Assembly: GCA_944326465.1 (NCBI GenBank)
Contig: CALVEB010000004.1
Coordinates: 21,717-85,716 of the forward strand
Origin: Candidatus Gastranaerophilales bacterium
GTDB taxonomy: Bacteria; Cyanobacteriota; Vampirovibrionia; Gastranaerophilales; Gastranaerophilaceae
DNA: 64,000 bases
Direction: 5' to 3'
Shown here in pieces: positions 23,508-47,380 of this stretch. A program made the position numbers and the translations under genes. The first letter of the stretch is position 1; each line of letters starts with the position of its first letter. Under the pieces are notes generated by a model, which was given only the letters and a program-made list of their open reading frames with translations, did not search any database and was not told the DNA's origin.

Positions 23508-23663
23508 ATGGAAGAATTGACAGATAAGGAATTAAATGTACTAAAATATTTAAAACAGGGATTAGCGGTGAACGATATAGCGGAACGTTGTGAAATTAGT
23601 CGTCATACGGTAACTGCCATAATATTGCATTTACATCGAAAGGGTGCTGTAAACAATACTTAA
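23508..23663 (+). CDS. Small LuxR/GerE-type HTH protein
   Basis: MEELTDKELNVLKYLKQGLAVNDIAERCEISRHTVTAIILHLHRKG. RBS AAGGAG before ATG 23508. Confidence 0.65.
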   Translation: MEELTDKELNVLKYLKQGLAVNDIAERCEISRHTVTAIILHLHRKGAVNNT

Positions 23664-23689
23664 CAACTGCTGCATATAATTCTGTGTCC

Positions 23690-23925
23690 ACCCTCTCCAA
23701 GGGGCGAGGGGCGGACGTAGTCCGCTCTTATACACTAGACACCCGCTAGAGGCACACAAAGTGTGCTCCTACACACTGGACACCCGCAAAAGTTAACGGG
23801 CATCCAGTATATAAAAGTGGACTGTGTCCACTCGCAAGGCGCCGACTCCCGCAAATCGTAGCAAAACTGCTGCGGTATGACGGATAAAAAACATGCAACG
23901 TGGAAAATCTCACAAGCATGTTTTT
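23690..23925 (+). repeat. Array of GC-rich modules: a variable perfect hairpin plus a conserved tail
   Basis: GCGGAC-gta-GTCCGC followed by tcttatacactagacacccgc. GGCACAC-aaa-GTGTGC followed by tcctacacactggacacccgc. GTGGAC-tgt-GTCCAC followed by tcgcaaggcgccgactcccgc. Two more hairpins share the loop cgtggRRaatctcaca (23891-23921 and 23979-24010). Confidence 0.7.
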
Positions 23926-23926
23926 A

Positions 23927-23963
23927 GGGGAATAAGGGATTAAGGAAATAAGGGAATAAGTTC
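23927..23963 (+). repeat. Octamer tandem repeat with TAA every 8 nt
   Basis: GGGGAATAAGGGATTAAGGAAATAAGGGAATAAGTTC, with TAA at 23933, 23941, 23949 and 23957. Confidence 0.8.
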
Positions 23964-24034
23964 TTTACAAAAAATAAGGCAACGTGGGGAATCTCACATT
24001 GCCCTATTTTGAAATCCTCTTAATCACTTAGTCA

Positions 24035-24151
24035 CTGTCTTGGATTTGCTCCACGCTCACGGAGACTCGCCTAAGGAGCGTTGCTCCAGTCGGCTCGTTC
24101 CGTTCGCTATCCGGACTCGCTACGCTCCGTCCGTCCGCAAATCCGCTAATC
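24035..24151 (+). repeat. 117-nt GC-rich core repeat, copy A (intergenic)
   Basis: 115 of 117 nt are identical to 46215..46331 by direct comparison. The ends are complementary (GGATTTGC...GCAAATCC) and there is an internal hairpin GGAGC-gtt-GCTCC. Confidence 0.9.
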
Positions 24152-24184
24152 ACTTAATCACTTCGAACTAAGAGGCCAAGCCTC

Positions 24185-25336
24185 TTAGTTCGACACACAT
24201 ATAGCGCGGCGGTTGCTGTTGTTCTTGAAGTACCAGATATTGTCATTGCCGGTCGTGTCGGAAGTGTCGAAGTACCGGTAGTACGCGGTAAGCGCATTGC
24301 GCTCCTCACTGGACCAGTAGTGGTAGCCAAGAGTAAGGGGAGGATTATCTTTGTATTCGTCCTTTACTTTAAGACCTAATTTGTCTTCGTTTGCTCCTAT
24401 TGTTACTTCATTGCCGTTGCTGTCTACATATAAATTACTTGCCAGTTGCGCAAGTTGTGCTCTCGTAGGAAGTTCCATGTCTTTATCTTTACATGCTTTT
24501 ATCGCTCCTGCCCAATAATTGGTTGAGCATCCACTGCTTGTATAGTTCTTATCATATTCACTTGTGCCATCACATGTGTCGATAGGGGTGTTTGCGGCAA
24601 AATCTGTGCTAAAGCACATGTCGCCTATAGGGTTATCGCAAGTAGAAAACGCTACACCTGATGATAATTCAATATCTTTTCCAACTCTATTAGGGCCTTT
24701 CTTTCCGTTTACATCTACCATATATGCCATGCAGCTTACCTGACTTCCTGTATCTTCTATTGGATCAGCGTAAGGGCATTCCGGCTGATATGCCATAATG
24801 ACTGTTGTCCCGTCTGCTACTACAAAGCTCATGGTATTTGTATTAGTTTGCCATTCCTTTAATCCCATGCTGCTTGCAGAAGTGAGACCGTTTGTTTCAA
24901 TTTCTTCTAACGCATCGTTCTTACCTGTTGTGACAACTTTAGGTGAATAACATTTGTTGATGTCATCCTTGTCACAGGTTTTGATTACTTTCATGTAGTT
25001 TTTGAAAGTGTTCATGAAATCCTCTGTAGTATCGTGTCCTGTCATTACACCGTCTACGTTCATACGGCGTACGGTTTCAGTGAGTTTCTTTTCCCACAGG
25101 TCTTTTGCTGTAGACCATGCTTTTTCATTGTGGTTCTGGATGAGACCAGGAAGGGTTAACGCGGCAACGATGCCGATAACCGCGAGGGTTATTAGGACTT
25201 CAGCCAAAGTGAATGCTGCTTTAGCGTGCGCCTGAGTGTAAGAGCGGGCTTGTCCACCTTTAGCGGTTGCCCGAGCGTAAGAGCACACTTGTGTGCCTTC
25301 TGCTAACGTAAATGCGTAATTTTCTGTTCTAGTCAT
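24185..25336 (-). CDS. Type IV pilin-like protein P2 (prepilin-type N-terminus, DUF1566-like C-terminus) with a 99-nt in-frame repeat insertion in the leader
   Basis: MTRTENYAFTLAEG-[insert]-AAFTLAEVLITLAVIGIVAALTLPGLIQNHNEK...VDVNGKKGPNRVGKDI...NYWAGAIKACKDKDMELPTRAQLAQLASNLY. RBS AAGGAGG. Confidence 0.7.
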   Translation of the reverse strand: MTRTENYAFTLAEGTQVCSYARATAKGGQARSYTQAHAKAAFTLAEVLITLAVIGIVAALTLPGLIQNHNEKAWSTAKDLWEKKLTETVRRMNVDGVMTGHDTTEDFMNTFKNYMKVIKTCDKDDINKCYSPKVVTTGKNDALEEIETNGLTSASSMGLKEWQTNTNTMSFVVADGTTVIMAYQPECPYADPIEDTGSQVSCMAYMVDVNGKKGPNRVGKDIELSSGVAFSTCDNPIGDMCFSTDFAANTPIDTCDGTSEYDKNYTSSGCSTNYWAGAIKACKDKDMELPTRAQLAQLASNLYVDSNGNEVTIGANEDKLGLKVKDEYKDNPPLTLGYHYWSSEERNALTAYYRYFDTSDTTGNDNIWYFKNNSNRRAICVSN

Positions 25337-36540: not shown

Positions 36541-36697
36541 AAGCTACTGTAGAGTTAGGCTTTCCATATAAACTATATATATGGTGGCTTGATATAGTTA
36601 CTGTAGGGTGGGCAAAGCGTATGCTAACCATACCGCGCAGGAATAAAACTGTTTGAGGTAAAGCGTGCCCACCAAATAGGATAAACAAGGAAGAAAA
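36541..36697 (+). repeat. 157-nt repeat/hairpin-bearing spacer between atpA and atpG
   Basis: Direct repeats TACTGTAG(A/G)GT. Stem GGTGGGCA...TGCCCACC encloses a segment flanked by a duplicated AAGCG. The leading TAGGGTGGGCAAAG resembles the module AGGGTGGACAAAG at 45979. Confidence 0.5.
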
Positions 36698-45934: not shown

Positions 45935-47380
45935 ATGTCTAATAATGCATCTACAAAGTATGCTTTCACTCTCGCGGAAGGCAGGGTGGACAAAGTCCAC
46001 TTTAATACTTGGAAAACTGCTAAAGGTGGACAAATCCAAGACATCGAACGCGAAGGCAGGCTAGCCTGCACCACCACTCAGGCGCCCGCAAAAGCGCAAC
46101 GGTGCCAATACGTCATTGCGAGCGAATGCGAAGCAATCCAGCCTATTGAAAAAGCGGGATTAGAACAACAGAATACGGGACTAATTCATGTAAAGAACTT
46201 ATTCCCTTATTTCCCTGTCTTGGATTTGCTCCACGCTCACGGAGACTCGCCTGAGGAGCGTTGCTCCAGTCGGCTCGTTCCGTTCGCTATCCGGACTCGC
46301 TTCGCTCCGTCCGTCCGCAAATCCGCTAATCCCTTATTCCCTTGTAGTAAACGCGTCGCCTTCACTCTCGCCGAGGTCCTCATCACCCTCGCGGTTATCG
46401 GCATCGTTGCAGCACTCACATTACCGGGGCTCATCCAGAACCACAATGAAAAAGCTTGGTCTACCGCGAAAGACCTCTGGGAAAAGAAACTCACAGAAAC
46501 CGTCCGCAGAATGAATGTCGACGGCGTAATGACCGGTCACGATACAACAGAAGCCTTCATGAACACTTTCAAAAACTATATGAAAGTAATCAAAACCTGT
46601 GATAACTCTGAGCTTAATAAATGTTACAGTCCGGAATTTGTGTTGACCGGTAAAAGAGATAATTTAGAGAAAAAATATATAGAAGATTTCAAAACAGCAG
46701 GTGACTTAGGAATAACAGATTGGAATACTAATACAATATCATTTGTTGTTGCAGATGGTACAACAGTTATTATGGCTTATAATCCAAAGTGTCCTTATGC
46801 AGATCCAGTTGAAGATACTGGCAGTCAAGTATCTTGTATAAGTATGATGATAGATGTAAACGGCAAAAAATCTCCTAACCGCGTTGGTAAAGATATTTTG
46901 CTCTCTAATGCAACCATTTCCACCTGCGATAATCCGATAGGAGATATGTGTTTGAGTACATCTTTAAAAATAGAAAAGATAGATACTTGTGACGGAACAA
47001 GTCCCTATGATTCGTTTTTTTCGTATGATAATGTAGGAAATGCTTGTGAAAATAATTACTGGGCAGGTGCTGTAAAAACTTGTAAAGACAATAACATGGA
47101 ACTGCCGACCGGTGCGCAATTTGCAGAAATAGCAAATAATTTATATGTAGACCGTAATGGTGACCCGATAAAATTAAAAGTAAACGGCAATAAAAGTAAT
47201 ATAAAATTTAAGGATGAATACAAAGACAATCCTCCTATTGCTCTTGGTAATTACTGGGTAAATGACGATCAGGGGTCGTTCGCAAGGATGCATTATTTTG
47301 GAGGAGAGAGTACCAGCGGAAACAGTAGTACTTCTAAACATAACAGTGCAGCCCGCAATGTTCTATGTATTTCAAATTAG
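45935..47380 (+). CDS. Type IV pilin-like protein P4 (DUF1566-like C-terminus) with a 396-nt in-frame repeat insertion splitting the prepilin leader
   Basis: MSNNASTKYAFTLAEG-[132 codons of repeat DNA]-VAFTLAEVLITLAVIGIVAALTLPGLIQNHNEK...IDVNGKKSPNRVGKDI...NYWAGAVKTCKDNNMELPTGAQFAEIANNLY. RBS AAGGAG. Confidence 0.65.
   Translation: MSNNASTKYAFTLAEGRVDKVHFNTWKTAKGGQIQDIEREGRLACTTTQAPAKAQRCQYVIASECEAIQPIEKAGLEQQNTGLIHVKNLFPYFPVLDLLHAHGDSPEERCSSRLVPFAIRTRFAPSVRKSANPLFPCSKRVAFTLAEVLITLAVIGIVAALTLPGLIQNHNEKAWSTAKDLWEKKLTETVRRMNVDGVMTGHDTTEAFMNTFKNYMKVIKTCDNSELNKCYSPEFVLTGKRDNLEKKYIEDFKTAGDLGITDWNTNTISFVVADGTTVIMAYNPKCPYADPVEDTGSQVSCISMMIDVNGKKSPNRVGKDILLSNATISTCDNPIGDMCLSTSLKIEKIDTCDGTSPYDSFFSYDNVGNACENNYWAGAVKTCKDNNMELPTGAQFAEIANNLYVDRNGDPIKLKVNGNKSNIKFKDEYKDNPPIALGNYWVNDDQGSFARMHYFGGESTSGNSSTSKHNSAARNVLCISN
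46215..46331 (+). repeat. 117-nt GC-rich core repeat, copy B (inside the P4 reading frame)
   Basis: 115 of 117 nt are identical to 24035..24151. It is flanked by reverse-orientation octamers (cttattcccttatttccc and aatcccttattccctt). Confidence 0.9.

Follow-up and report, generated by a model that had tools for sequence, protein, structure and literature searches.

A genus-restricted family of REP-like hairpin repeats in the gene flanks of gut Gastranaerophilales

Introduction

REP/BIME elements and REPINs, with REP-associated tyrosine transposases (RAYTs), have been described in E. coli and Pseudomonas (PMC2817692, PMC3733652). Their hallmarks are a hairpin accompanied by an unpaired tag, subfamilies with complementary stems, an organization in inverted dimers and clusters, and a location downstream of genes (PMC3733652). 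Orphan REPs with a CGTC tag and without a transposase have also been described, and CGTC-tagged examples are dRS3 of Neisseria and RPE-4/6 of Rickettsia (PMC3733652). Nothing relevant was found in the literature on repeats or diversity-generating retroelements (DGRs) in the Gastranaerophilales or Melainabacteria, whose gut and rumen metagenome-assembled genomes contain relatives of the proteins encoded in the genome described here.

Other small repeats are of interest for comparison. The pneumococcal BOX element is modular (boxA-(boxB)n-boxC), with a variable number of tandem subunits of about 40–45 nt and fixed end modules, and is not known to have a transposase of its own. The SDR and STRR repeats of Nostoc, which belongs to a sister lineage, are very small, capable of forming hairpins, and nested in each other and in short tandem arrays of heptamers. 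In the pilin loci of Neisseria, a gene-conversion family, conserved non-coding repeats (the Sma/Cla repeat and RS elements) are found 3′ of many pilin copies.

Here we describe a family of hairpin repeats from a 64,000-nt stretch of DNA (the window; contig C4:21717-85716) of a Gastranaerophilales genome (G000) of 2.07 Mb, 36% GC and 52 contigs. A first-pass annotation of the window had reported a run of units made of a hairpin and a conserved tail, and had proposed that they form a dispersed, previously unclassified repeat family with stems under structural selection.

Results

Architecture of the spacer

The units lie in a convergent spacer of 521 nt (23664-24184), bordered on the left by a small GerE/LuxR-type HTH gene (23508-23663, plus strand) and on the other side by a pilin-like gene with a prepilin N-terminal methylation motif (24185-25336, minus strand), one of about 56 paralogs. 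A blastn depth profile shows the spacer to have a mosaic structure, in which every small repeat module is found 10–85 times genome-wide. The unit comprises 36 nt: a perfect 6-bp stem, a 3-nt loop and a conserved 21-nt tail. Unit 1 (23711-23746, plus strand) is GCGGAC-gta-GTCCGC followed by the tail TCTTATACACTAGACACCCGC, and unit 2 (23752-23787, plus strand), with GCACAC-aaa-GTGTGC and the tail TCCTACACACTGGACACCCGC, follows it at a 41-nt period. Unit 3 (23796-23831, minus strand) is inverted, so that the plus strand shows the tail ACGGGCATCCAGTATATAAAA and then GTGGAC-tgt-GTCCAC, and the minus strand reads GTGGAC-aca-GTCCAC plus the tail TTTTATATACTGGATGCCCGT. The reported hairpin-and-tail modules are thus present, as two tandem copies plus an inverted one and not as a long run. 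The tails of units 2 and 3 pair in the predicted fold, giving a long hairpin that resembles a REPIN doublet.

Several other modules surround the units. Next to unit 1, folding predicts a hairpin module, CCCTC-GCCCCTTGGA-GAGGG (23691-23710, minus strand), with a half hairpin, GTGTCCAC, ahead of it; related CCTCTCC..GGAGAGG modules flank many units, and a 257-nt block at this module is present in some strains and absent from others. Unit 3 is preceded by a CGTC-headed arm (23832-23884, minus strand; CGTCATACCGCAGCAG...GCCTTGCGA in minus-strand reading), and arm and unit are together part of a palindromic composite of about 190 nt located behind several genes that carry a DGR variable region (see below). 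This composite begins with CGTCAT, ends with ATGACG, has inverted arms of about 90 nt and often houses an inverted pair of units.

The two larger hairpins of the first-pass annotation, said to share a loop sequence, were both found and have the core CGTGGRRAATCTCAC in common. The first (23886-23925) has a 10-bp stem, AAAAACATGC/GCATGTTTTT, and a loop core GTGAGATTTTCCACG, with an A-run before it and a T-run after it, in the manner of a bidirectional terminator. The second (23970-24011, minus strand), GGCAATGTG-AGATTCCC-CACGTTGCC, belongs to the GGCAAYG...CGTTGCC family and is also terminator-like, its reading and folding giving a 9-bp stem and an 8-nt loop followed by TTATTTTTT on the minus strand. 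From these features the two hairpins are predicted to be terminators of the pilin-like gene; a simple terminator consensus scan listed neither of them.

The interval between the larger hairpins holds an octamer array of the GGGAATAA type with an 8-nt period (23924-23960, plus strand; blastn depth up to 86). A second octamer array, of the GTGATTAA type (24012-24036 / 24147-24162), is split by a GC-rich insert of 117 nt (24035-24151) with 23–36 copies genome-wide, whose empty site is represented by the uninterrupted array AAGTGATT|GAGTGACT in other variable-region flanks. A further GC-rich insert of about 85 nt is nested in this one in some copies and strains. The loci considered for the 117-nt insert include the flanks at G000:C4:92855+ and C32:20243-, as well as L043 and L044. 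Tandem 8-nt arrays (GTGATTAA, GGGAATAA, GACGTTAA and TAGTGCCT types) come after the stop-codon hairpin in many flanks; they present TAA every 8 nt, which places stops in all three frames, and they double as inverted arms of hairpin-centred elements. In the spacer, the stop-codon hairpin is a perfect 14-bp stem, TCGAACTAAGAGGC-ttg-GCCTCTTAGTTCGA (24163-24193, minus strand), placed after the DGR target site. A DGR variable region with its IMH (initiation of mutagenic homing site; 24196-24330, minus strand) makes up the 3′ end of the gene itself. The spacer therefore flanks a DGR target gene on its 3′ side, a context that the earlier reading had overlooked. Folding gave z = -5.8 for a 215-nt stretch and z = -9.0 for the whole spacer (525 nt folded), and in both cases no shuffled sequence was equally stable.

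A dispersed family with compensated stems

A degenerate pattern composed of the right arm and the tail matched 53 sites genome-wide, and the reversed control pattern none. A looser genome scan gave 70 matches, two of them false positives, leaving 68 that were used in later counts, and a covariance model found 102 units; the family size is accordingly about 70–100 units in the 2.07-Mb genome. The most frequent stem classes are GTGGAC/GTCCAC (29 copies), GCAGAC/GTCTGC (13), GCGGAC/GTCCGC (5) and GCACAC/GTGTGC (3), classes that occur together with various loops and tails, and a few stems are hybrids such as GCAGAC/GTCCAC. These are the commonest perfect GC-containing hairpins genome-wide.

The proposal that stem pairing is preserved by compensatory change was upheld. 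In 51 copies from G000, 96.4% of the stem cells are paired, and double changes occur at three of the six stem pairs (T-A/C-G, G-C/A-T and G-C/C-G; 36 cells), with a covariation score reached by none of 500 shuffles. Stems and tails deviate from the consensus to a similar extent per column (14% vs 16%), and the changes in the stems are almost solely compensated ones. In four sister species (G001-G004) the hairpin is 99% paired, with double changes at four of the six pairs. Because that alignment was made by fitting to the model, it is biased towards pairing; independent evidence comes from an additional stem class, GTAGGC/GCCTAC, which is found in the sister species and absent from the training set of the covariance model. 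An outer GCGGG/CCCGC helix enclosing hairpin and tail was also considered, and was rejected with 64.7% of its positions paired and no compensated pair.

With the covariance model, 32–50 units were found in each of four of the five sister species, and none in the fifth (G005) or in 25 other genera. A species-specific family, as the strict pattern had suggested, is thereby rejected, and the range is the genus. No Rfam family reached its gathering threshold in the region, the sole match up to E=1 being at chance level (13.9 bits). The arrays are not CRISPRs, since the 41-nt period of a 36-nt unit leaves linkers of only 5 nt and arrays contain two or three units; a tRNA-like fold and an integron attC site were dropped on sequence, as the period, the loop sizes and the missing core motifs were unsuited to them.

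A unit may stand alone, belong to a tandem array with the 41-nt period, or be joined by an inverted partner, in which case the two tails fold into a long hairpin. The same fields contain at least a dozen further small hairpin modules, among them CGTC- and GTAG-tagged palindromes, GGCAAYG..CGTTGCC hairpins, the 8-nt arrays and the 117-nt insert. The related hairpins that had been listed elsewhere in the window are of mixed nature. Those at 45981 and 46062 are degenerate units of the family, and the one at 46113 is part of the same mosaic, as a CGTC-tagged module and not the unit itself. The hairpin CTGAC-tgt-GTCAG at 57503 bears no family relation, and the GGTGGGCA...TGCCCACC hairpin of the atpA-atpG spacer (36607-36673) is of a different, GTAG-tagged class. 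The latter, GTAG-GGTGGGCA...TGCCCACC when its tag is included (36603-36673), has a 51-nt interior, and hairpins of this class with an 11-nt loop are found in several other repeat fields.

Units in the flanks of DGR target genes

The 3′-terminal ~135 nt of the pilin-like gene are present in 34 copies genome-wide, and these variable regions differ from each other only at NNC/NNT codons, in the first two positions. The template, a non-coding copy in which those codons are AAC/AAT, is located on contig C12 (G000:C12:10073-10208, minus strand; L004:6074-6209) beside a bAvd gene (L004:5488-5859, minus strand), and 361 of the 406 mismatches between targets and template fall on template adenines. The DGR reverse transcriptase, with the motif IGNLTSQ, is on contig C9 (L001:1249-2382, minus strand). 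The DGR thus appears to be split over two loci, both well inside their contigs. Among strains whose spacers are identical, the variable region differs solely at adenine sites, which indicates that the DGR has been active. At G000:C8:118+ and G000:C41:1592+ the variable region is followed by the template-type flank GTCTCGGGAG instead of GTGTGTCGAAC and the hairpin; these two may be relics of the original target, or copies that do not home.

The suggested enrichment of the repeats near pilin-like genes was confirmed: of the 68 units, 36 (53%) are found in the 2 kb downstream of one of 33 variable regions, where 3.0% would be expected by chance. This corresponds to an 18-fold enrichment, whereas the 1.2 kb upstream of variable regions contain no units. 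Eight further units are upstream of a prepilin motif, and seven of 18 others are 1.2–1.7 kb downstream of one. In G002, a species with no close homolog of the DGR reverse transcriptase, eight of 12 units are within 600 nt of a pilin-like paralog, among the matches listed. Crude ORF calls covered 25 units, 24 by spurious frames through GC-rich repeats and one being a false-positive unit match; the units are therefore intergenic. Overall, GC-rich fields occupy the spacers beside the 27–70 pilin-like paralogs of each genome, in G000 mainly the 3′ flanks behind variable regions.

The order of modules in these flanks is as follows: the variable region is followed by the IMH, the stop-codon hairpin, the 8-nt arrays and the GGCAAYG..CGTTGCC hairpin, and the units come last. 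Among 28 well-assembled variable-region flanks, the 12–14-bp stop-codon hairpin and the 8-nt tandem arrays are each found in 25, the GGCAAYG..CGTTGCC hairpin with its T-run in 20, at a median of 98 nt after the IMH, and units in 18, at a median of about 400 nt. A repeat census by 16-mers (12-mers being too permissive in an AT-rich genome) showed that such repeats make up 2.6% of the genome and occupy 61 of its 104 contig ends. The counts and contexts of units are consequently incomplete, as metagenome assemblies break at these repeats.

Since most units are downstream of genes, behind terminator-like hairpins, they could be cis-acting RNA elements of the pilin-like transcripts, serving as 3′-UTR stabilisers, processing sites or protein-binding sites under selection for RNA structure. 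The hairpin is conserved in five species, and nine of ten full inverted doublets fold 4–13 kcal/mol better on the strand that is sense to the variable-region gene, owing to G-U pairs. However, the doublets are probably copies of a single ancestor, so that the 9:1 orientation bias is not made up of independent cases. Ten of the 28 flanks have no unit at all, and where units are present they are distal to the terminator-like hairpin (about 400 nt vs 98 nt). Moreover, both orientations occur, some units are upstream of genes, strains differ in content at the same locus, and G005 has 51 paralogs and zero units. A role of this kind is considered unlikely.

Relation to the RAYT transposase

The genome encodes one RAYT (C1:37742-38059; Pfam Y1_Tnp, 44 bits; NCBIfam REP_Tyr_transpos, 133 bits against a cut-off of 80). 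It is flanked on both sides by its own GTAG-tagged REP, GTAGGTCGGCTTTACTAAGCCGAC, as are its orthologs across the order. Two copies of this REP in direct orientation flank the gene and a third, inverted copy lies inside the coding sequence (L003:1400-1433, 1709-1740, 2015-2050); the intragenic inverted copy is at a conserved position in all RAYT orthologs examined (L011-L023). No TnpB or IS200-605 partner was found in the G000 genome. Contig C49 of the same genome carries a Drt2-type defence reverse transcriptase (L002:1135-2562, minus strand; 360 bits, just below the 390-bit cut-off), beside which a 367-residue ORF, open at its 3′ end (L002:2-1102, minus strand), is transposase-like by eye; the contig is short and terminates in repeat modules.

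The distribution of units was compared with that of the RAYT, the DGR reverse transcriptase and the pilin-like genes in six species of the genus, where the lack of the reverse transcriptase means that no close homolog was found. G000 contains 102 units, one RAYT, the DGR reverse transcriptase and 56 pilin-like matches, and G003, which also has the reverse transcriptase, contains 50 units, no RAYT and 27 pilin-like matches. In the other four species the reverse transcriptase is lacking: G001 has 41 units, one RAYT and 63 pilin-like matches; G002 has 37 units, a RAYT fragment and 70 pilin-like matches; G004 has 32 units, a RAYT fragment and 49 pilin-like matches; and G005 has 0 units, six RAYT matches and 51 pilin-like matches. 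The occurrence of units thus follows the genus and the flanks of the paralogs, with no link either to the RAYT or to the DGR reverse transcriptase. As pilin-like matches are found in all six species (27–70 each) and a close homolog of the reverse transcriptase in only two (G000 and G003), the expansion of the paralogs is also independent of the DGR.

These data bear on the possibility that the units are classical REPs or REPINs mobilised in trans by the single RAYT, which would recognise the hairpin and a GTAA/GTAG-like tag on single-stranded DNA. The RAYT is a bona fide one, the inverted doublets are REPIN-like, and on the complementary strand the unit reads GT(A/G)TAAGA plus the 6-bp stem and the 3-nt loop, which resembles the GTAG-1/2 layout with a dinucleotide between tag and stem. 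At this position, two nucleotides from the stem, the tag is GTAA in 40 of 68 units and ATAA in 19, whereas the canonical GTAG is found in only four. Furthermore, the RAYT and its orthologs are flanked by another REP, GTAGGTCGGCTTTACTAAGCCGAC, G003 maintains 50 units without a RAYT, and G005 has several RAYT copies without units. Neither its flanking REP nor its phyletic pattern supports the RAYT as mobiliser, and we regard this explanation as quite improbable. The first-pass annotation had itself named a REP family with a RAYT elsewhere in the genome as the case that would make the repeats known biology; the RAYT does exist, with a different cognate REP and a distribution in the genus that does not follow the units.

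Reshuffling of repeat fields between strains

Three loci were compared among conspecific strains from other metagenome assemblies. At all three the unique flanks are invariant and the module content varies, with breakpoints at module borders. The spacer described above ranges from 488 to 997 nt in length, with two tandem units in some strains and three in others, and with deletions at short homologies. In the field that precedes a PilZ gene, strains share the promoter-proximal unit and differ in all distal content, the tail variant of the boundary unit itself being swapped. In the third locus, located behind a gene, strains part exactly at a module border. Insertion of a single unit with an empty site and a target-site duplication was not seen in this three-locus comparison. 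As regards the features of MITEs, the composite has its ~90-nt inverted arms, and the neighbouring 117-nt insert has both filled and empty sites. In G000 and some other strains an IS3-family insertion (rve transposase) parts the PilZ upstream field from a pilin-like gene (L050; G000:C24:28734-29965); strain L053 has no IS at this field, and there a variable-region gene abuts it.

The pilin-like gene also varies between strains, its C-terminal third being mosaic and its first 250 residues nearly identical, and the C-terminal third is exchanged together with the flank. It is conceivable that the fields are recombination substrates that promote gene conversion of 3′ gene ends (variable region, IMH and hairpin) between pilin-like paralogs, a role that would be comparable to that of the 3′ repeats of Neisseria pilin loci. 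If so, the fields would create and redistribute retroelement targets over 30–70 genes, as a layer of cassette exchange on top of DGR mutagenesis. The strain data show the joint exchange of gene end and flank with breakpoints in repeat modules; causation by the repeats goes beyond them, and we judge it rather doubtful.

The idea that the hairpin field serves the DGR as an accessory, in which structured DNA behind the variable regions aids cDNA homing, for instance through replication stalling or exposed single strands, agrees with the 18-fold enrichment downstream of variable regions, with the past activity of the DGR (adenine mismatches, and strain differences at those sites) and with the known requirement of DGRs for a hairpin or cruciform beside the target site, but it is very improbable, as this requirement is already satisfied by the 14-bp hairpin (24163-24193; present in 25 of 28 flanks, with the units distal and in 18 of 28), G001, G002 and G004 have 32–41 units without a close homolog of the reverse transcriptase, and the variation among unit copies is mostly C/T. 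The adenine bias that a trace of the DGR reverse transcriptase would leave among unit copies was not seen.

Discussion

On balance, we lean towards the view that the units are an orphan family of REP/BIME-like structured DNA repeats, restricted to one genus and spread mainly by recombination between the flanks of paralogs. The copy number, the range, the compensated stem, the bias towards gene flanks and the reshuffling between strains are direct observations. Spread and shuffling would take place mainly through recombination or gene conversion between paralog flanks and through slippage in the tandem arrays, with no dedicated transposase. The stem may be kept paired because the hairpin, as single-stranded DNA or as RNA, is recognised or propagated, or through correction of one arm by the other. 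The units are found in at least ten different flank contexts on either side, which would also fit an active mobile module. Any host function would be secondary, for example as a structure at the 3′ end of transcripts; such a function is possible, given that the conservation of hairpin and tail across five species exceeds a purely neutral expectation.

The first-pass annotation was right to regard the family as dispersed, but it is not of a new kind, since published REP/BIME hallmarks match it (PMC3733652). It is new as a family, and represents genomic clutter of a known sort rather than a new system. It is nevertheless relevant in several respects. For annotation, most breaks in the assembly of these metagenome-derived genomes are caused by the GC-rich fields (61 of 104 contig ends), which also generate spurious ORFs of 90–250 codons. 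For mobile DNA, the family is an abundant and structurally constrained REP-like repeat that is demonstrably untied to the RAYT of the same genus, and so bears on how orphan REPs spread. In gut Gastranaerophilales, pilin-like genes form a family of 27–70 members whose flanks are marked by the repeats. As 34 of these genes in G000 carry variable regions served by one DGR, reshuffling of the flanks also reshuffles the surface repertoire.

Comparison with known repeats

The closest resemblance is to REP/BIME elements. As in these, a short palindromic unit is accompanied by a conserved unpaired flank and is present in tens to hundreds of copies, all of them extragenic. Alternative complementary residues in the stem, inverted dimers, mosaic clusters, a bias towards the 3′ side of genes and differences between strains are also shared. 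Unlike in REP/BIME elements, the conserved flank has 21 nt instead of being a 4-nt GTAG tag, with GTAG found in 6% of units; the sole RAYT is cognate to another REP and shows no co-occurrence with the units; and the units are concentrated beside the genes of a single paralogous family. With the CGTC REPs the family has in common its orphan status and its clustered organization, and modules headed by CGTC or TGTC, with stems starting with AT and CCA tails, are found in the same fields (46111-46145; arm 23832-23884). The unit itself, in contrast, has no CGTC head, and its stem has 6 bp, compared with 8–9 bp in CGTC REPs.

The remaining systems are more distant. Like the pneumococcal BOX element, the repeats are modular, with tandem subunits in variable number, strongly folding and intergenic, and have no transposase of their own, but there is no sequence relation, and the neighbours of the unit are many different modules, whereas BOX has fixed ends. 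Nesting of the kind known from the SDR and STRR repeats of Nostoc is seen where the 117-nt insert splits an octamer array; this likeness is one of description, as the sequences and the period (octamers vs heptamers) are different. Finally, as in the Neisseria pilin loci, non-coding repeats are found here at the 3′ ends of many pilin-like copies. The paralogs described here, however, are full-length and diversified by a retroelement, instead of being silent cassettes, and the part played by their repeats in recombination would be a putative one.
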